The position numbers and the translations under genes were made by a program. Positions 5,490-19,476 of a stretch of DNA of 64,000 nt are shown in pieces. This DNA comes from Nannocystis bainbridge (GTDB lineage: Bacteria > Myxococcota_A > Polyangia > Nannocystales > Nannocystaceae): positions 417,724-481,723 of the forward strand of contig NZ_JAQNDL010000002.1 in NCBI RefSeq assembly GCF_028368995.1, written 5' to 3'. Position 1 is the stretch's first letter. Each line of letters begins with the position of its first letter. The notes under the pieces were generated by a model. The model ran no database searches. It had not been told where the DNA came from and saw nothing but the letters and a program-made list of their open reading frames with translations.

Positions 5490-7892
5490 TCAGCGCCAGA
5501 AGTCCTTGCGCTTGCCGGGCGGGGGCGGCGGGCTGCGCTTGTCCTCGACGAGCTTGCGCAGGGCGGCCACGGCTTCCTTCAGGAGCGCCAGCAGGTCGTC
5601 GGCGCCGAGGGACCCGCGCAAGCGATCGACGAGCGGCGCGAGGGCGGTGGCGAGGGCGTCGAGGCCGACGGTGCGCAGGTCCTCGAGCAGCTCGATCAGG
5701 CGCGCGATCGGCAGCTGCGCGGCCGCCGTGTCGACGGCGCGCTCGAGGTCGCGGACGATGGCGCCCAGGCGCGCGAGGTATGGGATCGCAGAGACGGTCG
5801 CGCCCTCGGGCGACTCCTGCCTGGGCGGAGGGGGCGAAGGGCTGCGTGGAGGCGAGGCGGGCGCGGGGGCGCGGGCGCCCGGAGGGGGCGGGGCCGAGAG
5901 CGTGGCGGAACGGGGAGGGGCGGCGGATCGCTTGCTGCTCATGGAGATCGCACCGACGAGCTTGGGCTCGCCGCGCCTGGCGTGTTCCATCGGCATGGCG
6001 TCGAACCGCGGCTGGGACCATCCGGCCGGGCGCTCGACGGGCTGGGTGACCGTGCGCGGGTTGCCGCCGGGGTTGACGACTTCGCGGTCGACGGCGACGA
6101 AGGCGGTGAAGCGCGAGAGCACCTGGTGACGCCGCGAGACGGCGACGATGGCTTGCTCGAGCCGCGACGGATCGGCGGTGCGGGCGGCGTACTGATCCTC
6201 GAGATCGCGGATGTGCGCGCGGGCCCACGACTGCGCCAGCGCGGCGGCCGGCGGGGCAGGGTCGAGGCGGACGCGCTGGTGGTACTCGGTGCCGGCGGGC
6301 AAGCGGCCGCGCAGCTCGAGGGTGGCGCCGGGGCGCGGCTGGCCGTGCCAGCGGGCGTGGACGACCAGCGGGGCGCCGGCGAACACGGCGGGCAGGCGGT
6401 GCGGGGCCTGGGTGGCGAGGTCGAGGCCGTCGCCAGCGACGCTGACTTCGACGAGGACAGGGGTGGCGATCCGGCGGTGGATCTTGGCCATGACCTCGTC
6501 GAGGCGCTCCTCGCTCTCGACGAGCTCGCAGGCGCCGCCGCCGAGAGCCGCGAGGCGGCGCAGGAAGCCGGCGTTGACGGCCTTGTCGATGCCGAGGGTG
6601 AAGACGCGGATGTCGCCGAGGCGCGGGCCGTGGTCGCGCAGGATCTCGTCCTCGTTGCCGACCTGGCCGTCGGTGACGAGCACGAGCACGCGGTCGCGGT
6701 CGTCGTCGCCGGCGAGCATGCGGGTGGCGAGCGCGAGCGGCCTGGTGAGATCGGTGCCGCCGCGCTCTTGGAGGCCGGCGAGGTACTCGACGGCGCGGAA
6801 GCGGTTGCGGTCGCTGGCGGTCGCGAGCTGGGCGCCGAGGCTCGGCGGCGACTCGACGGTGTTGTCGAAGGCGAGCACGGCGAAGCGGTCGCGGGCGCCG
6901 AGAGTGTCGATGATGCGCGCGGCAGCCCGGCGCGCGGCGACCATCTTCCACCCGCCCATCGAGCCGGAGCGATCGAGGACGAGCACGACGTCGCGCGGGC
7001 GACCCTGGGCGGCGGCGCCGACGGGCGGGACGATGGTGAGGACGGCGGTGGCGCCCTCGCCGTCGGCGTCGGGGGCCCACACTGCGGCGCTGTGCAGGGC
7101 TGCATCGCCGAGGGTCCAGCGGAGGATGAAGTCGCGGTCGAGGCGCTCGCCGGGCCGCAGCTCGAGGCGCCAGCCGCCGGCCTCGGGCGCGGCGAAGACC
7201 TCGTGAAGGCTGGCGCGCAGGTTCGAGACGGGCAGACCGGCGCCGTCGACAGTGACGGCGAGCGCGAGTCGGACGGGGCTGGCGAACCCGGGCAGCAGGA
7301 CGGGCGGGGAGATCCGCGAGGCGTCGGGGACACGATCGGTGTCGGCAGCGAGGCCGGTGCCGGCCTGCTCGCCGCCGAGCGGGGCGCCGGGGATGTAGCG
7401 CGGGGCGACCACCAGCGGGAAGGCCCAGGTGACCTCGCCGTCCTCGATCGGCAGCGGACCGACGGTGCGCAGGGTGATGACGGCGTGGTCGCCGGGCACG
7501 AGGTTGCCGACGCGCAGGGTGAAGACGCCCGGTCGATCTTCCTCGGCGATCGCGGCGCGCTGGCCGGCGGCGATGGCCTGCTCGTAGACCTCGCGGGCCC
7601 GGCCGCGCTCGTCGATCACGCCGTCGACGATCCGCCCCTGGACCTGCATGCGAAAGGCGTAAACGGCGGCGCGATCGGGCAACGGAAAGATGTACGTGGC
7701 CTCGATCGCCGCGCCGGTGTTGTTGACGAAGGTCTGCTGGATCTCGGTGGCGACCTGCAGGCCGCTGATCCGCGCATTGACGGACAGGGCGGCGAGCGGG
7801 AGGCGACCCTGGGAGGTCTCGAGGCGACCGAAGGCGGGCTCGTCGAGTGGCTGGGTGAGCGTGGGGTCGATGGTGAGCGCCGTGGGGATCAT
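5490..7892 (-). CDS. VIT (vault/inter-alpha-trypsin) domain + von Willebrand factor type A domain protein with Pro-rich and helical C-terminal tail
   Basis: N-terminal VIT-like region (IFPLPDRAAVYAFRMQVQGRIVDGVIDERGRAREVYEQAIAAGQRAA...VFTLRVGNLVPG). vWA MIDAS motif VVLVLDRSGSMGG...TDLTRPL...LVTDGQVGNE. The C-terminal 150 aa are Pro/Ala-rich followed by an amphipathic helix. Confidence 0.85.
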   Translation of the reverse strand: MIPTALTIDPTLTQPLDEPAFGRLETSQGRLPLAALSVNARISGLQVATEIQQTFVNNTGAAIEATYIFPLPDRAAVYAFRMQVQGRIVDGVIDERGRAREVYEQAIAAGQRAAIAEEDRPGVFTLRVGNLVPGDHAVITLRTVGPLPIEDGEVTWAFPLVVAPRYIPGAPLGGEQAGTGLAADTDRVPDASRISPPVLLPGFASPVRLALAVTVDGAGLPVSNLRASLHEVFAAPEAGGWRLELRPGERLDRDFILRWTLGDAALHSAAVWAPDADGEGATAVLTIVPPVGAAAQGRPRDVVLVLDRSGSMGGWKMVAARRAAARIIDTLGARDRFAVLAFDNTVESPPSLGAQLATASDRNRFRAVEYLAGLQERGGTDLTRPLALATRMLAGDDDRDRVLVLVTDGQVGNEDEILRDHGPRLGDIRVFTLGIDKAVNAGFLRRLAALGGGACELVESEERLDEVMAKIHRRIATPVLVEVSVAGDGLDLATQAPHRLPAVFAGAPLVVHARWHGQPRPGATLELRGRLPAGTEYHQRVRLDPAPPAAALAQSWARAHIRDLEDQYAARTADPSRLEQAIVAVSRRHQVLSRFTAFVAVDREVVNPGGNPRTVTQPVERPAGWSQPRFDAMPMEHARRGEPKLVGAISMSSKRSAAPPRSATLSAPPPPGARAPAPASPPRSPSPPPPRQESPEGATVSAIPYLARLGAIVRDLERAVDTAAAQLPIARLIELLEDLRTVGLDALATALAPLVDRLRGSLGADDLLALLKEAVAALRKLVEDKRSPPPPPGKRKDFWR

Positions 7893-8494
7893 CGGGAGTC
7901 CTCGGGAGGTTCGGGGTCGTCGGAGCAGTCGGGTTCGGAGCGGGTGAGGAGGCGGCGGCGGGCGAGCTCGGCGAGCAGCGGGGCGGCTGCGGCGAGCAGG
8001 GCCGCGGCGTCGGCGTCGGTGGCGTCGCGCGCGGCGGAGAAGCCGAGGCGGACGCCAGGAGCGAGCTCGAGCTCGAGGGTGGGCGTGAGCGCGGGGGCGG
8101 CGGGAAGCGGCGGCGCTTCGGGCTCGAGCGTGGTGACGGGGGCACGCCAGAAGTCGCGGCGACCGGCGGAGCGCGGGGCGGGACGCAGCTCGACCTGCGA
8201 GAGCTGCGTGAGCGCAGAGTCGTCGAGGGTCGGGAGGAGGCGCTGGATCTCGGCGAGCGGCTTGCCCTCGGCTTGCAGGCGCTTGATGGCGATCAACTGG
8301 GCGAGGTGCCGCGGGCCATAGAGGGCGGTGCGGCCCTGCAGCGCGGGGCGATCGAGGAGGCCGAGTGTCGTGTAGTAACGGATGCTGCGCTCGTCAGGGA
8401 CAGCGCGCACCTGGCCGTTGGCGGGGGCCTCCTCGCTCGCCAGGCGCTGCTCGGCCTGGCGGCTGAGCTCGCGGATCGTCCAGGTGACGGTCAC
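7889..8494 (-). CDS. MerR-family HTH transcriptional regulator
   Basis: N-terminal WTIRELSRQAE...RSIRYYTTLGLLDRP...LYGPRHLAQLIAIKRLQAEGKPLAEI matches the MerR HTH plus dimerisation helix. Its stop overlaps the ATG of the VIT-vWA gene by 4 nt (ATGA), implying translational coupling. GTG start. Confidence 0.75.
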   Translation of the reverse strand: MTVTWTIRELSRQAEQRLASEEAPANGQVRAVPDERSIRYYTTLGLLDRPALQGRTALYGPRHLAQLIAIKRLQAEGKPLAEIQRLLPTLDDSALTQLSQVELRPAPRSAGRRDFWRAPVTTLEPEAPPLPAAPALTPTLELELAPGVRLGFSAARDATDADAAALLAAAAPLLAELARRRLLTRSEPDCSDDPEPPEDSR

Positions 8495-8600
8495 GGGGAG
8501 GATGGTGACAGTGTTATATGACAGTGTCGAGATTGAATTTTTAAATCATTGGAAATATGAGGGAAAATCGGACGCGCCGAGCGACTCGGGAGCGACATCG
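8495..8600. promoter_or_regulatory. AT-rich promoter-like region upstream of the merR/VIT-vWA operon, with direct repeat TGACAGTGT-TATA-TGACAGTGTC
   Basis: Local GC falls to ~40% (gtgacagtgttatatgacagtgtcgagattgaatttttaaatcattggaaatatgag). Perfect 9-bp direct repeat separated by TATA, immediately 5' of the merR start. Confidence 0.4.
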
Positions 8601-8867
8601 CTCACCGGGCTGTTCGCGCAGGAGGGCGATGGCACGCGGGCGCAGGCGGACGTGGTGAGGCGTGTCGTCCTCGAGTTCGCGCCCTTGCGAAGCTTCGTGA
8701 CGAAGAAGCAGCGATGAAGAGCGAGCGTGGCGGCTCACGATCGGCGATCGGTCGATGTTGACGGGCTTGGTCGTTCGCGCAAAACCAGAGGTGAGGCGCT
8801 CGGGGTCGGGTCGGTTCGGTCGGTGACTCTGTCCCGCGCGGGGCAGCGAACTTCTTGCTCGCCGCGC

Positions 8868-10100
8868 TCAACCCGACACGAACCGACGGATCCACAGGTC
8901 CGTGTCCGAGATGGCGACCGTCTCGAACCCGACGACGACGAAGAACTCGGGCCCGACCGCGACGTCGTAGCCGCGCTCGCTGAACCCGAGTGTCGTGTTG
9001 TCGTACAGTGCCGACCAGCGCGCCGCTCCGTCGCCCTCGAGCCGCGCCATGTAAAGATCCTCTTGCGCCGGACCGTCGCCGACCGACCCGGTCACGAGCA
9101 CCGACCCGTCGAAGTCGGCCGCCACTCCGAGCCCGCCGTACCCGTAATTCGAAGTATCGAGCAGATGCGTCCATCGCTCGCTCCCGTCGGCCGCGATCCT
9201 GCGCGCCGATTTCCCCTGGCTCAGCCATCCAGTCAACACGACGTCGCCTTCCTCGCCGATCGCCGTCACGGCGTGCCATGCCCCCGACGTGCCCGTCTCG
9301 ACCGCGAGCGACTGCAGCGCCCCGGACGCGTCGAACACCGCCGTCAGCGGCCGATCTTTCCCTTCGCCCGGAGGCAGCGCCGCGCCCGCGACGATCAACC
9401 GCCCGTTCGCCTCCGTGAGCCCGTACCCGCGCGTCGATCCCTCGGCCTTCGCCGGCGTCTCCCATACCGGCGCTCCCGAGCCCACGTTGTGCCGTCGCAG
9501 CACCATATGGGTGCCCGTCGAATCATTGAACGCCTCGCCGAGCGAGTACAGGCCCTCGTGCGCGAGCACCAGCGCCGTCACGCTCGAGCTCTCCTCGTCG
9601 GGCGTCGGCACCGAGTATGCCCACACGTCGTTGCCGTCGCGGTCGAGTCGGCGCACGACCCCCAGCCGCGACGCGTCCCACCCCGCGACGAAGATCGCCC
9701 CGTCGTCGCCGACCACGACATCATTGAACACCGCGTCGAGCTCCAGCGCCGCCGCGAACCGTCGCGTCCACAGCTCCGTGCCGTCGGGCGCGAGCACCAG
9801 CACGAGCCCGGCGAAGTTCTCGTCCGCGTCCGTCTCGAGCCCGACCACGACGATCCGCCCTTGCGCGTCGATCGCCACCGCGCGCGCCTCGTCGCGCCCC
9901 CCTGCGGCCCCGCCATGGACGTGCGTCCATTCGACCGCCGGCCCCTCGCACTCTGTCGGACACGCGGGGCCGGTGGTCGGGTCAGCTTCGGTCGTCGAGG
10001 ATGCGTCCGTCGCCGTCGTGTCGCCTGTATCGCCCGGAACGCCGGGGCAGGCTGTCGCGCACAAAAGGAAAGGCAGGGCGAGGATCGATCGCGTCATCAA
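8868..10100 (-). CDS. Beta-propeller repeat lipoprotein (paralog family)
   Basis: Signal MMTRSILALPFLLCATAC. Thr/Asp-rich linker, then blades with repeated VVVG / LWTRRF / VFVAGW motifs as in 2314..3657. Confidence 0.75.
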   Translation of the reverse strand: MMTRSILALPFLLCATACPGVPGDTGDTTATDASSTTEADPTTGPACPTECEGPAVEWTHVHGGAAGGRDEARAVAIDAQGRIVVVGLETDADENFAGLVLVLAPDGTELWTRRFAAALELDAVFNDVVVGDDGAIFVAGWDASRLGVVRRLDRDGNDVWAYSVPTPDEESSSVTALVLAHEGLYSLGEAFNDSTGTHMVLRRHNVGSGAPVWETPAKAEGSTRGYGLTEANGRLIVAGAALPPGEGKDRPLTAVFDASGALQSLAVETGTSGAWHAVTAIGEEGDVVLTGWLSQGKSARRIAADGSERWTHLLDTSNYGYGGLGVAADFDGSVLVTGSVGDGPAQEDLYMARLEGDGAARWSALYDNTTLGFSERGYDVAVGPEFFVVVGFETVAISDTDLWIRRFVSG

Positions 10101-10214
10101 GCTCTCCGCTCGAGCGTGGAGTACCCGGCGAGGCGAGAGAAATTGCGGTGACGGTACAAGTTCCTCGCGCGCGGCGGCGCGCTCGCGCGATGGGCGGCCT
10201 GTCAGCGCTGCCCG

Positions 10215-11624
10215 TCACGACGCGGCAGACCTCGCGGTGATTTCTGCCGGGCCACCTCGTTCAAGGGCGGCTGCGATGAAGTCGTGGATCGTCTGCGCGA
10301 TCGATGGATCGAAGTACATGCTGTAGTGGTCGCCGTCAGGCAGCACGAGGCTCGATGCGTGGGGGATCGCGGCGCCGATCGCCGCGGCTGCGGCCGGGTG
10401 AGCGACCTCGTCTGCGGCGCCGGTCATGACCAGGGTCGGCGCGGTGATCGAGGGCGGCGGACCGCTCGCGCTCTCGGCGAAGAACTCGCGCAGCAGGAGC
10501 GCATAGCGGTGCAGCGCGACCGGGCTGCGGAACGGCATGCTCGCCAGGTGGACGAGCGAAGGGTCGATCTCCCCGAGCACGTGAGAGACCTGGTCGCGCG
10601 CCTCCCCGTCGCGCTCGCCGCCGCCGCCGAACACGACGTGGTGCACGTGGATGAATCGTCGCACGCCGAGGGTCACTGCCAGATCGAGCACATTGCAGGT
10701 CCCGCCGAAGTTGTGCTCGAAGATCATGCTGCGCTGGCGGGCCTCGAAGCTCAGGCTGGCGGCGAAGTGCCACGCGCTGGTCGGCACGCCGCGGCCCACC
10801 GGACGGACCGTGAGGTCGACGCCGCAGCCCGCCTGGCTGCGGCGCTCGGGCGCGGCCGCCGGCTCGATCATCCGCCGCGGCAATGGGGCGACAGCGCACA
10901 GGTACGCGACCTCGTGCTCGTCGATCAGTGCCAGCAATCGTGCGGGCAAGTAGAACGGCGCGGTGTAGAGCCGCACCGTGGCGCCTTGGGCGAGCGGGAA
11001 GAAGATTTCGAGCAACGACACGTCGAAGAACAGCGGCGCGGTGTTGAGGCAGCGCGCGCCGGCCTCGACCGGGTAGTACGCGACGATGTCGCGGAAGAAC
11101 GCGGCCACGTTGGCGTGGGAGATCCGCACGCCCTTCGGGGCGCCCGTCGAGCCCGAGGTGAAGAGGCAATAGGCGTCGCGCTCTGGCTCGGGACCACGGC
11201 GAGGCGCCGCATCATCATCCTCGGCGAGCGTCGCGGTCAGCTCGGCGTCGGCCGCGACGCAGACGACCCCGGGCGCCGCGTCGGCGACCAGCGCTCGCAG
11301 CTCGGGTCGCACGACGGCGTCGCCCGGGGCGATGCGCCCGAGCAGGAGCCGGAGACGGGCCGGCGGCAGCGACGGGTCGAGCGGCACTGTCACGACCCCG
11401 GCCAGCCAGGCGCCGAGCATCGCCGTGACGACGTCGATGGATTTGTCGGCGACGATCACCAGCGGACCGCCGCCGAGCCGCGCCGCGAACGAGCGCGCCC
11501 GCCGGACGAGCGCGCCGTAGGTGACCGAGGCGCGGTCGTCGATGAGCGCGATGCGCTCGGGGCTGGCGGCCGCGTGCGCTGCGATCGCGTCGGTCGCCAG
11601 CGCTGCGGGGTCAGACGCGCGCAT
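10215..11624 (-). CDS. Atypical chimera: ANL-superfamily adenylation domain N-terminal half (A1-A4 motifs only) fused in-frame to an alpha/beta-hydrolase-like C-terminal region. Possibly a decayed or rearranged gene
   Basis: N-terminal portion has ERIALIDDRASVTYGALVRRARSFAARL (A1/A2 region), LFTSGSTGAPKGV (A3) and FFDVSLLEIFFPLAQGATV (A4). A5-A10 are missing. The C-terminal ~180 aa (TLVMTGAADEV...LPDGDHYSMYF...IHDFI) look like an alpha/beta-hydrolase C-terminus with the catalytic His region, but no clear GxSxG nucleophile elbow. Single uninterrupted frame of 469 aa. Confidence 0.5.
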   Translation of the reverse strand: MRASDPAALATDAIAAHAAASPERIALIDDRASVTYGALVRRARSFAARLGGGPLVIVADKSIDVVTAMLGAWLAGVVTVPLDPSLPPARLRLLLGRIAPGDAVVRPELRALVADAAPGVVCVAADAELTATLAEDDDAAPRRGPEPERDAYCLFTSGSTGAPKGVRISHANVAAFFRDIVAYYPVEAGARCLNTAPLFFDVSLLEIFFPLAQGATVRLYTAPFYLPARLLALIDEHEVAYLCAVAPLPRRMIEPAAAPERRSQAGCGVDLTVRPVGRGVPTSAWHFAASLSFEARQRSMIFEHNFGGTCNVLDLAVTLGVRRFIHVHHVVFGGGGERDGEARDQVSHVLGEIDPSLVHLASMPFRSPVALHRYALLLREFFAESASGPPPSITAPTLVMTGAADEVAHPAAAAAIGAAIPHASSLVLPDGDHYSMYFDPSIAQTIHDFIAAALERGGPAEITARSAAS

Positions 11625-11850
11625 GGACCCACGCCGTGAGGCTGTCGAGGCTGCGCAGCGCCGCGAAGTCGTCGGCGCCGCCGCCGAATGCCAGGCCGAA
11701 GCGTCGCTCGAGGCGCGCGAGGAACTCGATCACCTCGAGCGAGTCGAAGCCTGCCGCGCCGAGCAGGTCGGCGTCATCGGCGATCGTCAGGTCGGGGACA
11801 TGCTTGATGTCGCGGATATCCGCGACGATGGTGCTCTTGATGTGCATCAT
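11611..11850 (-). CDS. Stand-alone acyl/peptidyl carrier protein
   Basis: GFDSLEVIEFLARLERRFGL is a canonical phosphopantetheine attachment site (DSL). 79 aa. SD GAGGGAA upstream of ATG. 3' end overlaps the start of the adenylation-like gene by 14 nt. Confidence 0.85.
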   Translation of the reverse strand: MMHIKSTIVADIRDIKHVPDLTIADDADLLGAAGFDSLEVIEFLARLERRFGLAFGGGADDFAALRSLDSLTAWVHARV

Positions 11851-11880
11851 GGTTCCCTCGTTTAGGAGTGCGGACAGGGG

Positions 11881-12942
11881 TCAGGCGGACAGAGGCTCGC
11901 GGGCGAGGCCCTCGAGGTAGCGGTGCGAGGTCTCCAGGCGGTACAGCGCTCCGATTGCGACCGGGCGCCGGACGTCGGGAGCCTCGACCAGCGGCGAGAT
12001 CACCTGATTGAGCCAGCCGCTCGCGTGCTGCGCGTCCATGCGGATGTGCAGGCGGTGGTACTCGAGGCCCTGCTCGCTCAGCCCATTGCGCCGCCAGCCG
12101 GTGACGATGTGTTGAAACCGGTCCGGAACCAGATACTCGGTCACCGCGTAGTAACCGATGGCCTTGTGGAAGTGCCGGCGGTGCAGGGCGAGCAGCACGG
12201 ACAGGTTGCCGCACACCAGCGATTCGAGCGACGCGGCGCCGTCGAGGTCGGCTTCGTCGATGCCGACATCCGCGAGCGCCTGCGTGAACAGGACGGTGTG
12301 GGTCGCCGCGAGCGTGCCGTTGCCGATCTCGTCCCAGAAGTTGCGACCGATCTCCAGCTTGACCCCGCCGCTGGTGCCGAGCTGCAACAGCGCGAGGATG
12401 TCGTCGAGGCGCGCGTCGATCGTGCTCTCATCGACGAAGAACCGCCGCAGGTCGGCGAGCCCGGCCCGCTGCGCCAGGAAATCGGTGTAGTACGGGTGCT
12501 TGTAGGCGGGGTGGGCGTGGATCAGCCGGGTCAACCACCGGCGGAACGCGCCTGGCTCGCGCGGCATGTCGTCCAGCGGCGAGAGGTCGATGGAGCGCTC
12601 GAGGTCCGCGAGGAACGCCCGCTCCGCGAACCCGGCGATGTCGGCGAGGATGCCCGCGAACTGCGGGTGTGCGCGTCCGGGCTTGGGGATCTTCAGGTGG
12701 AGGTCGTAGAGCGCGTGCAGCACCCGATGCAGCTCGAGCGCGTAGCCCGGGTCGCCCGCCGCCTTGTCGCACACCTGCGCGGTCAGCCGGAGCAAGGCGT
12801 CGCGCCGCTCGGCGTCGGCGAACAAACCACCGAGCTCGTCGGCGTCGAGGCGCAACAGCTCGCGGACGACGGTGGTCAGCGGCCCCGGCCCGGTCTGCAT
12901 CGAGCGCGCCGGCTCGAGCGCGCGCAGTAGTTCGAGGCTCAT
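11881..12942 (-). CDS. Heme-oxygenase-like iron-containing redox enzyme family protein (Haem_oxygenas_2 / HDO-type diiron fold)
   Basis: HPYYTDFLAQRAGLADLRRFFVDES...KLEIGRNFWDEIGNGTLAATHTVLF...HFHKAIGYYAVTEYLVPDRF: Glu/His-bearing helices typical of the PqqC/CADD/UndA-like iron-containing redox enzyme family. Sits 30 bp upstream of the carrier protein gene on the same strand. Confidence 0.7.
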   Translation of the reverse strand: MSLELLRALEPARSMQTGPGPLTTVVRELLRLDADELGGLFADAERRDALLRLTAQVCDKAAGDPGYALELHRVLHALYDLHLKIPKPGRAHPQFAGILADIAGFAERAFLADLERSIDLSPLDDMPREPGAFRRWLTRLIHAHPAYKHPYYTDFLAQRAGLADLRRFFVDESTIDARLDDILALLQLGTSGGVKLEIGRNFWDEIGNGTLAATHTVLFTQALADVGIDEADLDGAASLESLVCGNLSVLLALHRRHFHKAIGYYAVTEYLVPDRFQHIVTGWRRNGLSEQGLEYHRLHIRMDAQHASGWLNQVISPLVEAPDVRRPVAIGALYRLETSHRYLEGLAREPLSA

Positions 12943-13289
12943 GACAACACCGCCATCCGCTCGGAGACGATGGCCATCGCGTCGACCTCGAACCACGCGG
13001 TGTCATGTGTGCGGGTTTTATGGGGAACAATCATCATACAAGCGCGCGCTTTCGTGATTTGTCAGGACTTGCGGCCGCACGAGTCATCGTGCTTCGGCCT
13101 CGCCGCGGCAACCTAACAGGGCGGGGCCGGGCCGAAATTGCATCCGAATTACACGAATGCAGGCTCGAAATTATCTCCCGGATCCGGACTCACCGCATCG
13201 TCAGACGCGCGCGCACAGTAGGGTGGGGGGCGTCCAGCGGCCGGAGACGGGTCCGCGCCCACCGTGTGAGTGCGCTACACATGAGGCGC

Positions 13290-13543
13290 CGTTGAACGAG
13301 CGTCTGGAGCAGGCCGGCGTGCCGCTGCTCGCCGTGTTCGGCGAGCAGGACCAGATCTACGCCGCACACGAGGCTTTGCGAGCCTACGCGAAGGTCACGG
13401 GGTCCCAGACCCGGCTCATCCCGGACGCGGGCCACGCTCCGAACGTCGAGCAACCGAGGGTGCTGGCGCAACTGATCCTGGCCTTCTCGGCCCCGGCGGA
13501 CCCCGGCGGCGAACGACGCCATGAAGAGCGGTCCAGTCGGTGA
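13290..13543 (+). pseudogene. C-terminal fragment of an alpha/beta hydrolase (remnant)
   Basis: LEQAGVPLLAVFGEQDQIYAAHEALRAYAKVTGSQTRLIPDAGHAPNVEQPRVLAQLILAF is a typical hydrolase C-terminus with catalytic-His motif. No N-terminal nucleophile-containing half upstream. The preceding 300 bp are low-GC non-coding. Confidence 0.4.
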
Positions 13544-13876
13544 GACGGGCGTGAGACCGGGGTGATCGTCGCGCTCGGCGGGGTGAACCCGTACTACGAT
13601 GATTGCCGCTCGGGCTTGCTGTGATTCAGCGCCAACCTCGACTCGGACTCGCGTTCGGGCAGCTCAGCAGCCATCGGGACGAGGTCGGCGTGTCGAGCAT
13701 GGCATCGGCGCTCGACCTCGCACGCTCCAGTCAGGGTCGACCGTGTCGCAGTAAGAGATCGATCGCGTCGAGCCTGTCACCGGCGAGATCGACAGCGTCG
13801 CAGTCCGTCGTCCGTCTCGTCCTCGCCTGTCCCTCGGGACAGCACGTGCCCGTCCAGGACCTGTTAGCATGGGCCC

Positions 13877-14908
13877 GTGACCGACGAACACTGCGCGGAC
13901 GCTGTCCAGATCCTCTCGCTCCGCGAGGTAGTGCGCAAACGGCCCGCCATGTACGTCGGGGGGACCGACGAGGGGACTGGCCCGTTGCACCTCCTGCTGG
14001 ACGTCCTCGCCGGTGCCGTCGAGCTGGCCGTGCGCGGTCGCTGCACCCGCATCGACATCGTCGTCGAGGCCGACGACCACATCACTGTCGCCGACGACGG
14101 CCCCGGCATCCCGGCGGCCGCGCTCGTCGACCTCCTCGAGGTCCCCGCGGGCCGGACCCGCGGCGAACTCACGTTCCTCTGCTCCGACCTGCCGCTCGCC
14201 GTCGCCCTGTGCGACCCCCTCGAGATCGACACCGTCCACGCCGGCGAGCAGGCGAGCGTGGTCTATGCCGCCGGCTTGCAGCGCGCTCCCGTGCGGGTGG
14301 CCCCTGCCGCACGGTCGTCGGGTACCCGGATCCGCTTCCGCCCCGATCCGCACATCTTCCAGTGCACGCGTGTCCCGCGGGCCGAGGCGGCGCGGCGCCT
14401 CGCCGACCTCGCGTTCGTCCTCCCCGCGGTGTCGCTGTCGTGGACGTTCGCCGAGCCCCGCGTAGCGAACCTCGCCGATCGCGTGCGTGTCGAAGTCGGG
14501 GCCTCGCCTTTCGGTGTTGCCCACCACCATGGCGCCTACGGCACCGGCGAGCGTCCGATCGCCGTCGAAGTCGCCCTCGCCTGGCGCGCCGAGCCGCGCG
14601 GACGGCCGCCGCAGATTCATGCCTTCGCCAACCTCCGGCCGAGCGCGGGCGGCCAGCACGTCCTCGGCGTCGCGGCGGGCGTGCGCCGGTTCCTGAAGGC
14701 CCGCGGCGACCGCGGCCTCCACGACCTCGTCGCCGCCGTCGCCGTGCAGCTCACCGACCCCCGATTCCGCGGAGCGTCGCAGAGCGTGCTGCTAGACGCA
14801 GGGGTGCGTGCCGCCGTCAAGCAGGCGACCCTGATCGCCTTGATGTCCTGGGCCGTGCGCGACCCGGAGGCCGTCGAAGCGCTGCATCGCCGTACGCGGG
14901 CCCGCTGA
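13877..14908 (+). CDS. GyrB-like GHKL ATPase domain protein (short stand-alone homolog of DNA gyrase B N-terminus)
   Basis: ILSLREVVRKRPAMYVGGTDEGTGPLHLLLDVLAGAVELAVRG...DIVVEADDHITVADDGPGIP aligns with the GyrB N-terminal Bergerat ATP-binding fold (LEAVRKRPGMYIG...HLV.EVVDN...DNGRGIP). Only 343 aa, so the Toprim and C-terminal domains are absent. GTG start. Confidence 0.65.
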   Translation: MTDEHCADAVQILSLREVVRKRPAMYVGGTDEGTGPLHLLLDVLAGAVELAVRGRCTRIDIVVEADDHITVADDGPGIPAAALVDLLEVPAGRTRGELTFLCSDLPLAVALCDPLEIDTVHAGEQASVVYAAGLQRAPVRVAPAARSSGTRIRFRPDPHIFQCTRVPRAEAARRLADLAFVLPAVSLSWTFAEPRVANLADRVRVEVGASPFGVAHHHGAYGTGERPIAVEVALAWRAEPRGRPPQIHAFANLRPSAGGQHVLGVAAGVRRFLKARGDRGLHDLVAAVAVQLTDPRFRGASQSVLLDAGVRAAVKQATLIALMSWAVRDPEAVEALHRRTRAR

Positions 14909-15037: not shown

Positions 15038-15676
15038 TCATTGGTGAGGAACGGGATCTCGTCGGGGCTGCGCCCGCAGCTGCTCGTAAAGCCGCTCGCT
15101 CGGGGTCGGACCCTCGGGCACCGGGTCCGGTTGGCCGGGCAGGGCCTCGTGTACGTTCATGGAGCCCGTCGCCTCGTACCACGTATGGAAGTCGAGGACC
15201 TCGACCTGCCCGCCGCGCACCCGGAGCTGGCCCGCGCTGGTGGTGAGGCGCTCGTGTCCGCCATCGGCGCTCGTCCCGAGGACCATGACCACGATTTCAA
15301 CGTACCCGTCTGGCAGCCGCGGCATGGCGATCTGCCACGGCCGAGCGGTGGACAGGCCGGGTACCCGGACCTCGGGGCCGAGGACCGCCGGGACAAGCTC
15401 CTCGCCGCGCCCATCGACGATCATCATGCCCGTGGCGAACACGAGGTCGCTGTCGGTGTTGTTGGTGATCTCGGAGGTCACGGCGGAGGCGGTGATCACG
15501 GAGCACATCACGAGCTCGGATTGTGCGCCGGTGCAGGCGTGCGCGAGCTTGAGGCTCGCCGCGCATAACGGCTCGTCGACGGGCTGGACCAGCGGGGGCT
15601 CCGGCGCCGGTCGCCGCATGCACGCAGCGAACGCGACGAGGACGAAGATCGCACACGTATCCGGGCGCCAGAGCAT
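15038..15676 (-). CDS. Hypothetical lipoprotein
   Basis: MLWRPDTCAIFVLVAFAAC signal/lipobox. 212 aa with non-artefact composition. Confidence 0.5.
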   Translation of the reverse strand: MLWRPDTCAIFVLVAFAACMRRPAPEPPLVQPVDEPLCAASLKLAHACTGAQSELVMCSVITASAVTSEITNNTDSDLVFATGMMIVDGRGEELVPAVLGPEVRVPGLSTARPWQIAMPRLPDGYVEIVVMVLGTSADGGHERLTTSAGQLRVRGGQVEVLDFHTWYEATGSMNVHEALPGQPDPVPEGPTPSERLYEQLRAQPRRDPVPHQ

Positions 15677-15789
15677 CGTCGACCTACTTCGCACGCGGCG
15701 AAGCTGATGGTCAATCGCCGCAGCTCACGGTCGCTGGCGCGCCAGCGCTCGGACATCGCAGCAACGAGTCGTGTTCGCGGTCGGCATCG

Positions 15790-16050
15790 ATGCTCTCGAT
15801 CGCCTCCGCTCGCGGCTCATTCCAACTCCGCTGGAGGATGCTCAAGGCGACGCTGCTTATGGTCCTGGACTCGCTGCGGAGTGACCGGATGTTCTGCGAG
15901 CAGCTCGACCACAATCTCCTGTTCCGCTGGTTTCTCGCCATGGACATGAGGGAGGACGCGTCCCACCCGACGACGTTCACGAAGAACCGCGAGCGACTCA
16001 GGGTCCACGAGCACGTGCTGATGGGGAACCGCGACGGGCTCATCGTCGGC
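15790..16050 (+). mobile_element. IS5-family transposase N-terminal fragment (DUF772/InsH-N-like). IS remnant without DDE domain
   Basis: LLMVLDSLRSDRMFCEQLDHNLLFRWFLAMDM...DASHPTTFTKNRERL matches the conserved N-terminal transposase domain of IS5/IS1182 elements. The frame then degenerates and no DDE catalytic region follows. Confidence 0.6.
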
Positions 16051-16143
16051 ATGTGCATCAAGCCCGGCGCGGGAGGCCGACTGCAGCTTCGCGCGTGCGG
16101 GCGCTGGGGCCGGGCGATCGGCACGTCATGATACGCTGCGCCG

Positions 16144-18156
16144 ATGTTCGCTCGGCCCGCGCCCCGTGGCTCTCTCCTCGTCGCGCTGGCGCTCCTCGCC
16201 GGCGGGCCGGCCTGCAAGGACCCCCAGCAGCCGGAGTCGGCAGTGAGCGCGGCCAGCGAGCCCGCCCCCGCGGCGCTCGTCGACGAGCACTTCCGCTTCC
16301 GCATCGACTGGCCCGGCGCGGGCTGGACAATGCTGTCGCGCGACGAGGCGCGGCAGCTCGCCCCGAGCGCGGTCGCCGGGGCTCGCCACGCCTCGGGCGT
16401 GTCCGCGATCGTCCTCGTCAAGTTCGCGCCTGGGCTGACCGTCGACGCGTACGCCGAGAGGCTGCTGCCGACGCTGCTCGACGGCAGGGTCGAGCTGGAG
16501 TCGCGCGAGGTCGTGACGTTCGCCGGCCAGGACGCGCGCCGGATCGTCTACGTCGGTGAGAAAGACGGCCTCACCTACCGCTGGATCTACACCGGCTTCG
16601 TGCGCCAGGACCACGCTTACTGCATCTATGGCTCGGGACTCGCGCACGCGGTGTCACTGCCGGCGCTCGAGCCGTTGCTGCGCGCCTTCTCGCTGCTGCC
16701 CGGGGAGATATCCGCTCCGCCGGTCGTGGCGACGGCCGACCAGCGCGGGCCCGGCTGGCGCGTCCGGGGCGGCGTGTTCGAGAGCGCGGTGTCGGGGCTG
16801 CGCGTCGCGCCGCCGCCGGGCTGGCGGCTGCTCGTCGGCGACGAGCTGATGCGCATGAACCCCGACGCCGAGGTCGGCCTCCAGACGGAGGGGCTCGGCG
16901 CCCAGCTCGTCGTCGTCCCCGAGCGCTTCCGCGGCGACGCGGCGACCTACCGCACGCGGATCCACGGCATGTGGATGGACGATCGCACGACGTCGCCCCT
17001 CGACCCGTGGACGGTCGAGCTCGCCGGCGAGCCGGTCGCGCTCCTGCGCGTCGCCGACGATCGGCTCGAGTACGCGGTCGGCACCCGCGTGGCTGACGGC
17101 TTTGGGCTGCAATTCGCGGCCTCGTATCCGCCCGCGCCGGGCGAAGCGGCGCGCGCCGGGCTCGACGAGGCGTTCGCCGCGGTCGCGCTGGTGGACCCGA
17201 CCGCCCGTGCCACGCTGGGCGAGGAGCTGGCGGCGCTGGGAGACCCTCAGAGCGACATCGGCTCGCGGCACAGCCTGCGCGGCGGGGTCTTCCGCGACTT
17301 CGCGGCGCGCGTCGTCTGGCGCGCGCCGCCGGGCTTCTGGCGCCTGATCGCCCGCGACGACCCCGAATCGCCCGACCGCGAGGTACTGGAGTTCGAGCAC
17401 CCGGCGAGCGGGCTGTGGGGCGGCCTCGTCGTCGCCGAGCGCCCGGGCGTCGACCCGGACGCGTGGCACGCGGAGCGCGTCGCGGAGCGCGGCGGCGTCG
17501 CTACGCACGTGAAGGGCCTCGCGCTCGGGCGCGGCGCGGCCCGGTTCGCGCGCGTGACGATCGCCCACGAGGGGATCGAGGTCGCGTACACGATCGCGAC
17601 CGCCGTCCACGGCGACGCGGCGATCGAGCTGTCGACGCAAGCGTTTGCGAGCGAGCTCGGGCAGGTCGAGGCCGAGCTGGGCCGGGTGTTCGCCGGCCTC
17701 GAGCTCGCGCCGGCGCTACCGATGTCGCGGCAGGACGGCGGCGAGCACGTCGACGAGCGCCGCGGCTTCGCCGTGCGAGTGCCGGCCGGCTGGGAACTCG
17801 CCGAGGAGAAGTTCGGCGACGGCGGTGACGGAGTCGACATGGCGCAGTGGCGCCGCGGCTTCCAGACCTTCCTCGTCATGGTCCTCGACTCCGGTCAGGG
17901 CCCGCTGACCGCTGAGTACGGGCGCAAGCTCTCCGTGCAGTCGATGCGCAAGCTGTTCTCACAGGACGCCGGCGAGCCCCGCGAGACGGTGACGACGCTC
18001 GCCGGCGCCCCGGCCGAGCGCCTGTCGTGGACGGGCGGCCCGGGCGGCGTCGAGCTGGTGACGGCGACGTTCGCCGAGCGCATATACTTGATCGTCGCCG
18101 AGAACCTCGAGCCCGCCGAGTTCGAGGCGACGCTCGCCAGCTTCCGGGCGCTGTGA
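16144..18156 (+). CDS. Large hypothetical lipoprotein (670 aa)
   Basis: Signal LLVALALLAGGPAC. Long non-artefact ORF with internally repeated ~150-aa modules (WRxxxGxFE/WRLL... recurring). No family recognised. Confidence 0.7.
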   Translation: MFARPAPRGSLLVALALLAGGPACKDPQQPESAVSAASEPAPAALVDEHFRFRIDWPGAGWTMLSRDEARQLAPSAVAGARHASGVSAIVLVKFAPGLTVDAYAERLLPTLLDGRVELESREVVTFAGQDARRIVYVGEKDGLTYRWIYTGFVRQDHAYCIYGSGLAHAVSLPALEPLLRAFSLLPGEISAPPVVATADQRGPGWRVRGGVFESAVSGLRVAPPPGWRLLVGDELMRMNPDAEVGLQTEGLGAQLVVVPERFRGDAATYRTRIHGMWMDDRTTSPLDPWTVELAGEPVALLRVADDRLEYAVGTRVADGFGLQFAASYPPAPGEAARAGLDEAFAAVALVDPTARATLGEELAALGDPQSDIGSRHSLRGGVFRDFAARVVWRAPPGFWRLIARDDPESPDREVLEFEHPASGLWGGLVVAERPGVDPDAWHAERVAERGGVATHVKGLALGRGAARFARVTIAHEGIEVAYTIATAVHGDAAIELSTQAFASELGQVEAELGRVFAGLELAPALPMSRQDGGEHVDERRGFAVRVPAGWELAEEKFGDGGDGVDMAQWRRGFQTFLVMVLDSGQGPLTAEYGRKLSVQSMRKLFSQDAGEPRETVTTLAGAPAERLSWTGGPGGVELVTATFAERIYLIVAENLEPAEFEATLASFRAL

Positions 18157-18334
18157 CCCGCGGTCGAGACGCAGCGCTGCTTCGAGACGGGTTTTGGTGA
18201 TATGGCCTGCAGGCCCAGTCAGGCCCCTATAAGGGCCCGAATTCGAGGGCTTGTATCGCAGACGATGCCGGGAACCCTGTCCCAGGAGAACGGAGATCTT
18301 GACGACGCGGACGCCTCCGTCCATGCGCCCTTCG

Positions 18335-18748
18335 TTACACCACGGGAAAGTTCACGACCGTCAGTTGTCCTCTGAAGCTTCCGGCTCCGTCGCCCGGCAC
18401 GATTACCGGCACATTCGCGAAGTCCAGGTTCGGCACGTCCTGGGTGATGTGGAGCGGCTCACCTTCGGGATCCGTGGTAGTGCAGTCGGTGCCCTCGAGC
18501 AAAGTAAACGTAGCGCCGAGCTGGACGGTTGTCCCATCACCGAGCAAAGCGCCTGTAATCTGAACGACGAGCCGGACTTCATCACCCGCACACGGGTAAT
18601 CGACATTGATCAAGCTGATCACCTGACCGGGGCCTCCGACGACGGCGGCGCCCTCGAGAGCGACCGGCGCGGTCTCATCGGTCCACGGCCAGTTCTCGTC
18701 GTCAGTCAGCGTTCCGGTCAGCTTGACAGAGATCCTCTGCGCCATTTC
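18335..18748 (-). CDS. Hypothetical protein (138 aa), in low-GC segment
   Basis: Strong SD GAGGAGCG 5 nt upstream of ATG (MAQRISVKLTG...). Beta-rich composition. Lies in an 18.16-19.5 kb lower-GC stretch. Confidence 0.5.
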   Translation of the reverse strand, partial: EMAQRISVKLTGTLTDDENWPWTDETAPVALEGAAVVGGPGQVISLINVDYPCAGDEVRLVVQITGALLGDGTTVQLGATFTLLEGTDCTTTDPEGEPLHITQDVPNLDFANVPVIVPGDGAGSFRGQLTVVNFPVV

Positions 18749-19476
18749 ACGCTCCTCTCGCTTCAAAGTATGGAGCAGGAATTCTCCGGTGAAGGTGGCG
18801 AGGTGATCAATGGCATACCCTCCGGAACCGTCTCTTGGCATGCCACGCGCGGAAGGGCCCGTATCGCCGCGGGCGAGTGCTGCGCAGGCGAAGACCGTTC
18901 CTTTGCTCAGTTCGCCGCTCGATCCGTTACCGGCATCCTCTTGGAACGTCGAGTGCCTGTCCCAGCATACGATCTCGCATCACTTGAATTCGGTGGGGCG
19001 ATATCATGAGTGACGACGGTAAAGCCACTCGACTGGATGGAACGAGAAGGCTGTCGGCGCGCTCAGGGTGTGCGATCTGTGATGCACGGCGTGTACGTAT
19101 CTGAACCTCAAACGTGTAAACCAGGCGCAGAAATGTCTGCACACCGACGACGGGGAGAGATGGGCTGTCGAAGCGTACGATCGTGAGGCTCCGCGCGATG
19201 TCGCTTGTCAGCGCATTACTTCGGGCGATCCCCCTTGCGAGCCGGACGGACCGCAGTGGGAGAAGCGACGATGGCCTGTTCACGCTGCGGCGCACGCTCA
19301 GCACCGTGGCTCCGCCGTCACTGGCTGCCTTCCTCCCGCCTGCCGTGATCGCTGTCGACGCTGGCTCGACGGCCCGACACCCGCTCATCATGGGTGCGTC
19401 GCCCCCGTTCGTCGTCCGCGGTCGCGTGAGGGCTGTGCTGGAACGCTCGGGACGACGGGAGCGTGGCGTCGCCCCG

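Follow-up and report, generated by a model that had tools for sequence, protein, structure and literature searches.

Does a short run of genes in the myxobacterium Nannocystis bainbridge encode a new kind of biosynthetic enzyme, or is it what remains of an older pathway? The genes lie in a stretch of 64,000 nucleotides (contig NZ_JAQNDL010000002.1, positions 417,724 to 481,723; hereafter, the window), where three co-directional open reading frames (ORFs) occupy the minus strand at 11881-12942, 11611-11850, and 10215-11624. Exactly as the initial annotation of the window stated, the first and second ORFs are separated by a 30-bp gap, and the second and third overlap by 14 bp. They were read as a heme-oxygenase-like diiron enzyme (HDO), a stand-alone peptidyl or acyl carrier protein (PCP/ACP), and a truncated adenylation (A) domain joined to a hydrolase-like tail, and the trio was suggested to carry out an oxidative tailoring step on a carrier-tethered substrate. 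We found that the locus is very likely the decaying relic of a small amino-acid-modifying cluster of the nonribosomal peptide synthetase (NRPS) type. The "adenylation-hydrolase chimera" is in all likelihood no new kind of enzyme, as it would have arisen from two neighbouring genes fused through two in-frame deletions, and we are fairly sure that it is a fusion pseudogene still readable as an ORF.

The 469-aa product of the third ORF (hereafter, the chimera) gave only truncated profile matches. PF00501 matched with E = 3e-43 and was limited to profile positions 3-306 of 384; TIGR01733 scored 147.6 bits (cut-off 317.4) over positions 1-230 of 409; Abhydrolase_1 matched at positions 166-245 of 245 only, and weak Epimerase and 3Beta_HSD matches were seen at chimera residues 286-328. 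A protein search returned relatives of three types: stand-alone 524-aa A enzymes (P0033 and P0034), which cover the first 54% of the chimera; 649-675-aa proteins with NAD_binding_4 and Abhydrolase_1 domains (P0032 and P0035-P0037), which cover its last part; and a protein of 291 aa (P0031) with 99% identity to the last 206 residues of the chimera.

The chimera consists of three pieces. Residues 1-262 (10838-11624, minus strand) are the N-terminal half of an A enzyme with motifs A1-A4 only; by tblastn and blastp, residues 17-261 correspond to residues 18-261 of the A enzyme, with 64% identity to the closest intact A gene (L085) and 48% to residues 10-259 of P0034. Residues about 263-327 (10644-10837, minus strand) are an internal piece of a thioester reductase (R; NAD_binding_4), in which residues 264-327 correspond to residues 84-144 of P0032 with 69% identity. 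Residues 328-469 (10215-10643, minus strand) are the C-terminal part of an alpha/beta hydrolase; here, chimera residues 315-453 align to residues 517-651 of P0032 (516-651 by tblastn) with 62% identity. The initial annotation was right about the A1-A4 motifs and about the hydrolase tail without a GxSxG elbow, and missed the 64-residue thioester-reductase piece between them.

Junction 1 is located at 10837/10838, and 100% nucleotide identity to a sister strain (L001, see below) begins exactly at 10837. Junction 2 is located at about 10643/10644 (residues 327/328), where RRFIHV is joined to HHVVFGG; in an intact relative, the two sides read RRFVHV followed by STAY, and ARFYH followed by RVVFGG, which are short similar in-frame sequences. 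In a tblastn search of all frames of the window, the A enzyme beyond residue 261, the reductase core, and the hydrolase N-terminus were not found.

A motif scan of the chimera detected TSGSTGAPKG (A3) at residue 156 and FDVS (A4) at residue 200, and did not detect GPTE (A5), TGD (A7), or GRxD (A8), the Rossmann GxxGxxG or the catalytic YxxxK of the reductase, or a G-x-(S/C)-x-G nucleophile elbow. The hydrolase histidine is kept (in GDHY at residue 431, which aligns with the GDHY of P0032). Full-length relatives carry GATGF(L/V)G, YE(E/Q/R)(S/T)K, and G[WF]CTG, the reductase motifs being seen in L092, L002, and P0032. As judged from motifs, the catalytic residues of the three parents are gone from the chimera, except for A1-A4 and the hydrolase histidine. 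Adenylate formation by ANL enzymes requires A5, A7, A8, and the A10 lysine; because these are missing here, the chimera cannot adenylate. The idea of a novel chimeric loading enzyme therefore has no support, with every catalytic motif beyond A4, the reductase motifs, and the hydrolase nucleophile missing. Structure prediction, which had been proposed as a check on whether an active site can form, did not help that idea either: AlphaFold2 (17-sequence alignment) gave a confident fold in the A half only (residues 10-245, predicted local distance difference test (pLDDT) about 80-95), and the junction regions (residues 246-304 and 323-352) had pLDDT < 50.

The comparison with orthologous loci, also proposed in the initial annotation, yielded the intact arrangement. 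In the genome collection, the scan gave only relatives of HrmI, the L-lysine N6-oxygenase of hormaomycin, at 35-47% identity and no close orthologue of the cluster; close relatives of the cluster came solely from metagenome and Logan contigs. A JGI metagenome contig (L002) and GCA_021733385.1 (L003) contain genes for a Rieske protein, RidA, an HDO (357 aa), an ACP (79 aa), and an A enzyme (524/525 aa), and then the start of the R gene. The loci with the closest relatives of the window HDO (L084-L089; 73% identity) have the order RidA, HDO (358 aa), ACP (79 aa), and A, and the RidA stop and the HDO start overlap by 4 nt. In L090 and L091, one of which is from the same sample as L084-L089, the C-terminus of A is followed by a 656-aa fusion of R with an alpha/beta hydrolase (hereafter, R/hydrolase), and the A stop overlaps the R start (8-nt ATG..TGA overlap). 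One contig (L092) carries the complete series of HDO, ACP, A (524 aa), and R/hydrolase (680 aa). Comparison of these intact relatives, with a 524-aa A enzyme and a separate 656-680-aa R/hydrolase, indicates that the ancestral state was two separate full-length genes. The other proposal for the third ORF, a deletion remnant of an NRPS/FAAL gene, was therefore essentially correct, except that two genes and two deletions are involved.

In all full-length R/hydrolases (P0032, P0035-P0037, and L092 3181-5223), we observed G-[WF]-C-T-G, with Cys at the position of the nucleophile serine. This putative Cys elbow hints at acyl-transfer or thioester chemistry over simple hydrolysis. The Asp of FDVS in the A enzyme presumably binds the alpha-amino group, as is typical of alpha-amino-acid substrates in the Stachelhaus code. 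The genes for HDO, ACP, and A are kept together in a subset of HrmI-like loci (L020, L094, L004, L039, L047, and L049). In an Actinomycetota metagenome-assembled genome (L020, 9971-15063), the trio occurs with an acyl-CoA-dehydrogenase-like gene and a transporter of the major facilitator superfamily; in L094 (2859-13162), it adjoins an NRPS with condensation, adenylation, thiolation, and thioesterase domains (C-A-T-TE), a P450, and a luciferase-like monooxygenase, and then insertion sequence (IS) fragments.

The sister strain L001 (Logan assembly of SRR28201026) bears on the order of the deletions. Its nucleotide identity to the window is 99.0-99.3% over 7361-10837 and 15982-18171. In its protein P0031, a reductase N-terminus with the Rossmann motif runs into the hydrolase tail across junction 2, just as found in the window (RRFIHV joined to H(R/H)VVFGG). 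Directly 5' of the reductase start, L001 keeps the last 17 codons of A (GPLFVLPPFETEEITNA, followed by the stop codon), with a stop/ATG overlap of 8 nt. The peptide GPLFVLPPFETEEITNA matches the C-terminus of A in L090, PLVVLAEFESTEEV, with a score that was reached in none of the shuffles (0/5000). In the locus comparison, HDO, ACP, the rest of A, and a GyrB-like gene were missing from L001. Because L001 keeps the end of A and the N-terminus of R, the ancestor of both strains had a full A beside R. From these sequences, the pathway was probably disabled before the window and L001 lineages split and is now eroding independently in each.

These results suggest the following history. In the intact cassette, a diiron HDO like HrmI and BelK (the belactosin counterpart) would N-oxygenate an amino acid, the free-standing A enzyme would load the N-oxygenated amino acid onto the 79-aa carrier protein, and the thioester reductase fused to a cysteine-type alpha/beta hydrolase would release or process the thioester; the downstream partner would either reduce the loaded amino acid off the ACP or condense it. 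The junctions are read directly from the sequences, and we infer the order of events. In the first event, about 380 codons would have been cut in frame from the R/hydrolase gene between RRF.HV and ARFYHRV (junction 2, common to L001), taking the reductase catalytic core and the hydrolase nucleophile. The common ancestor would have carried HDO, ACP, a full A, and an R/hydrolase already with this deletion. In the window lineage, an in-frame deletion of about 1 kb would have joined A codon 262 to R/hydrolase codon about 85 (junction 1), taking A5-A10 and the Rossmann motif and creating the 469-aa ORF. In the L001 lineage, a separate loss would have extended from the upstream hydrolase fragment (see below) to a point 17 codons short of the A stop. 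N. bainbridge would also have lost RidA and whatever genes lay upstream. With the R/hydrolase already disabled, the losses that followed have the look of neutral erosion, and because the loading enzyme is broken, the trio as encoded in N. bainbridge cannot perform a tailoring step.

Several points weigh against decay. Both deletions are in frame, with no stop or frameshift, which could mean selection for the fusion; we estimate that two in-frame deletions would occur by chance in about 1 in 9 cases. The NCBI protein that equals the third ORF (P0030, 100%) is annotated as "AMP-binding protein" and not as a pseudogene. The junction 1 deletion rests on one assembly. The HDO and ACP are intact, with metal ligands and serine in place, so partial use is possible. 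In the tail shared by the window and L001, only 4 differences were found (1 synonymous and 3 non-synonymous), which are, like those in the neighbouring genes, too few to measure selection.

The identification of the first ORF (11881-12942, minus strand; 353 aa) as an HDO was confirmed by PF14518 (E = 3e-34; 118.8 bits, cut-off 28.9; profile positions 1-175 of 177). The protein equals the NCBI entry P0001 of N. bainbridge (100% identity); other possible starts are a GTG at 12996, giving a longer ORF, and an ATG at 12903. By phmmer, it matched HrmI (PDB 9n1a; E = 4.8e-65, 223 bits) between HDO residues 24-347 and residues 11-337 of the chain, and the family profile matched HrmI with E = 8e-112; SznF, BesC, PqqC-like proteins, and RohS are far more distant. 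In an 18-sequence HDO alignment, E172, E205, H215, E269, H299, D303, and H306 are invariant. The BelK ligands, which were predicted by homology modelling and targeted by mutagenesis, follow the numbering of E205, H215, E269, H299, D303, and H306 (PMC11611017). HrmI and BelK act on free L-lysine, turning its side-chain amine into a nitro group, and need no carrier protein (PMC11611017; PMC13108848). By homology, the window HDO is an intact member of this characterised family of diiron N-oxygenases. The initial annotation had described a pure pseudogene case with a full-length A enzyme in orthologous loci, further inactivating changes in this copy, and an HDO without its metal ligands; the first two were found, the second as a further deletion, whereas the ligands are kept.

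The second ORF (11611-11850, minus strand) encodes, as had been proposed, a carrier protein: PF00550 matched with E = 9e-10, and the serine for phosphopantetheine attachment is present in GFDSLE. Its GFDSLEVIEF aligns with GLDSMEVIQF of L084, its length (79 aa) equals that of the ACPs of L084, L002, L003, and L092, and the gene order is collinear. We regard this predicted stand-alone carrier protein as intact. All three ORFs, in window DNA of about 70% GC, have normal coding composition, with a GC content at third codon positions (GC3) of 0.89-0.90.

The alternative that survives best, still an unlikely one, is that the chimera is dead while the orphan HDO remains functional, alone or with the ACP. 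The HDO would then oxidise a free amino acid (L-lysine to N6-hydroxy- or 6-nitro-norleucine, for instance), or the ACP would be loaded in trans by a different adenylating enzyme encoded elsewhere in the genome. The full length of the HDO, conservation at 7/7 ligand positions, and the retained DSL serine of the ACP agree with such a role, as does the carrier-free action of HrmI and BelK on L-lysine (PMC11611017; PMC13108848). However, RidA, which overlaps the HDO gene by 4 nt in L084-L089, has been lost together with the original 5' region, no promoter-like site was found upstream of the HDO (weak evidence for a myxobacterium), and both genes are dispensable, since L001 deleted them. In addition, about 1.3 kb of undamaged HDO and ACP sequence would be expected by chance at roughly 1% divergence since the shared deletion. 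The HDO and ACP are thus most likely intact through shortness of time, not need.

A more specific form of continued use, in which the ACP is aminoacylated in trans and the HDO oxidises the carrier-tethered amino acid, is improbable in our view. Our sequence data give no indication of a carrier-tethered substrate for the window HDO, although the gene linkage would allow one. The tailoring step proposed in the initial annotation likewise found no support, as the HDO is a homologue of HrmI (E of about 5e-65), and HrmI and BelK use free L-lysine. In a literature search, nothing was found that matched an HDO acting on carrier-bound substrates or an arrangement of HDO, ACP, A, and R/hydrolase. If the tethered substrate proved true, this HDO would be the first with demonstrated activity on a carrier-bound substrate, and the HDO-ACP-A genes that recur across unrelated bacteria (among them L020, L092, and L094) would form a new carrier-dependent branch of HDO N-oxygenases.

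There is very little chance that the chimera is a functional novel enzyme, for example a non-catalytic partner of the ACP or a new loading enzyme. Its ORF is open, both fusions are in frame, its GC3 is normal at 0.89, and NCBI annotates it as a protein; however, it is without A5-A10, the Rossmann motif, YxxxK, and the nucleophile elbow, its junction regions are predicted to be disordered, and its architecture is unique to P0030 among 336 protein-search matches and differs from that of L001. That the chimera is a mis-joined assembly is hardly credible: junction 1 is known from one assembly only and no Logan contig encodes P0030, but junction 2 is independently present in L001, the chimera sits on a 2.0 Mb contig, junction 1 is in frame with both flanks matching relatives cleanly, and no collapse-prone repeat was found.

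The window HDO resembles HrmI and BelK in full-length homology, in the same set of three His and three carboxylate ligands, and in being a stand-alone protein of similar size (353 versus 362 aa). It is distant from them, with 223 bits and 36-44% identity to HrmI-like relatives outside its own clade, and it is not beside an iron- and 2-oxoglutarate-dependent (Fe/2OG) cyclopropanase of the BelL/HrmJ type; its relatives pair instead with RidA, ACP, a free-standing A, and a reductase-hydrolase. No 2OG oxygenase was found among the neighbours of the HDO in the window, L002, L003, L084, L092, and L094, where the neighbours are RidA, ACP, A, R/hydrolase, NRPS, P450, and a luciferase-like enzyme. The HrmI-like family as a whole occupies at least 575 genome loci, mostly in Streptomyces, with varied contexts.

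The cassette also resembles systems of A, carrier, and thioester reductase. In the intact relatives, the A enzyme falls just short of the TIGR01733 cut-off (304.6 against 317.4 bits), and the R half, which resembles MxaA/MxcG thioester reductases, matches TIGR01746 with E = 1e-24 (87.1 bits, below the cut-off of 213.35 bits) and the MxaA R domain (PDB 4u7w) with E = 4e-10. In contrast to carboxylic-acid-reductase logic and the MxaA systems, the domains here are split into separate genes, R is joined to an alpha/beta hydrolase whose elbow has a Cys (G-W-C-T-G), and the window keeps mere fragments of A and R. FDO diiron N-oxygenases whose genes are linked to those for an A domain and a carrier protein are cited as the carrier-dependent class (PMC11611017). 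The genetic linkage of a diiron N-oxygenase to A and carrier is similar here, but the window enzyme, an HDO, belongs to a different fold family. Fusion and unitary pseudogenes in decaying clusters likewise show deletions in frame between similar short sequences, deletions that arose independently in sister strains, and IS fragments nearby; the window locus follows this ordinary pattern.

The surroundings of the trio are rearranged. A lower-GC non-coding stretch of about 350 bp (12943-13289) lies 5' of the HDO gene, where RidA (and Rieske) precede HDO in intact relatives; the low-GC segment noted earlier was borne out, with a GC content of 0.61 at 12900-13199 versus about 0.70 nearby. Upstream of the window HDO, tblastn detected no remnant of RidA or Rieske, even with the closest RidA as query. 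Homology of the window DNA to L084 begins at 12870, inside the HDO gene, and the L084 DNA upstream of that point has no homology to the window. A promoter scan upstream of the HDO found no sigma-70-like site, a result that is uninformative for a myxobacterium. Beyond the HDO, the order is the low-GC stretch, a PcaD-like hydrolase fragment, a degenerate GyrB-like gene, and a DUF772 transposase fragment; the last of these and the second truncated hydrolase indicate a rearranged neighbourhood, in favour of decay.

The hydrolase fragment (13290-13543, plus strand) is a separate pseudogene remnant, a C-terminal end that matches TIGR02427 (PcaD) at positions 175-249 of 251 and PF12697 at positions 156-216 of 217; only its last part survives in L001. 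The initial annotation described the trio as bracketed by two hydrolase C-terminal fragments in inverted orientation, and the second fragment does exist. We considered whether the two are inverted copies or the ends of a split gene, and this was ruled out: the fragment and the chimera tail share 27% identity over 59 aa (E = 0.019), and no inverted repeat was found in the DNA, so the bracketing is coincidental. Between 13430-13628 of the window and 3148-3361 of L001, identity falls to 82-86% with several indels, while the flanks are 99% identical. This stretch, which takes in the end of the plus-strand hydrolase fragment and the DNA downstream of it, could be a local recombination tract or the result of poor assembly.

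Some further genes differ between the strains or are degenerate. A GyrB-like GHKL protein (343 aa; 13877-14908, plus strand) matched HATPase_c (E = 2e-4) and DNA_gyraseB (E = 1e-7); it is without Toprim or C-terminal domains, and its ATP-lid and Mg-binding Asn region look degenerate by eye. A hypothetical gene (15038-15694, minus strand) encodes 218 aa in the window and 210 aa in L001, with differing C-terminal ends because identity between the strains stops at 15065, inside the gene. A 113-aa ORF (15790-16131, plus strand) is limited to DUF772, the N-terminal domain of an IS5-type transposase (E = 6e-15), and is, judging from this domain, an IS remnant beside the strain-variable segment. About 1.1 kb of the window (18172-19257), with no Pfam domain in its ORFs, seems absent from L001: L001 bases 1-30 equal window 19287-19258, and from base 30 on L001 matches the window starting at 18171. 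This gap may reflect an indel, or a k-mer artefact where the contig ends. Scans for tRNA genes and Rfam families near the locus, as signs of an integration site or a regulatory RNA, found none. None of the remaining neighbours is biosynthetic; they comprise a VIT-VWA protein, a MerR regulator, a beta-propeller lipoprotein, and a protein of 670 aa whose family is unknown.

Our analysis corrects the annotation of the "AMP-binding protein" of N. bainbridge to a fusion pseudogene. The apparent mini-cluster should be left out of any count of working biosynthetic loci in this species, and it is not worth taking from this strain into heterologous expression. Little is new at the locus itself, where an eroded NRPS-like cassette has left an HDO of the HrmI/BelK family and a carrier protein. 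Together with L001, it is a clean small case of cluster erosion, in which one shared deletion was followed by different ones in the two lineages. What deserves to be followed is found outside the window, in the recurrent uncharacterised HDO-ACP-A cassette, whose partners vary among a reductase-hydrolase, a C-A-T-TE NRPS, and an acyl-CoA-dehydrogenase-like enzyme. In a host with an intact copy, this cassette could reveal the substrate of this branch of HrmI-like oxygenases.

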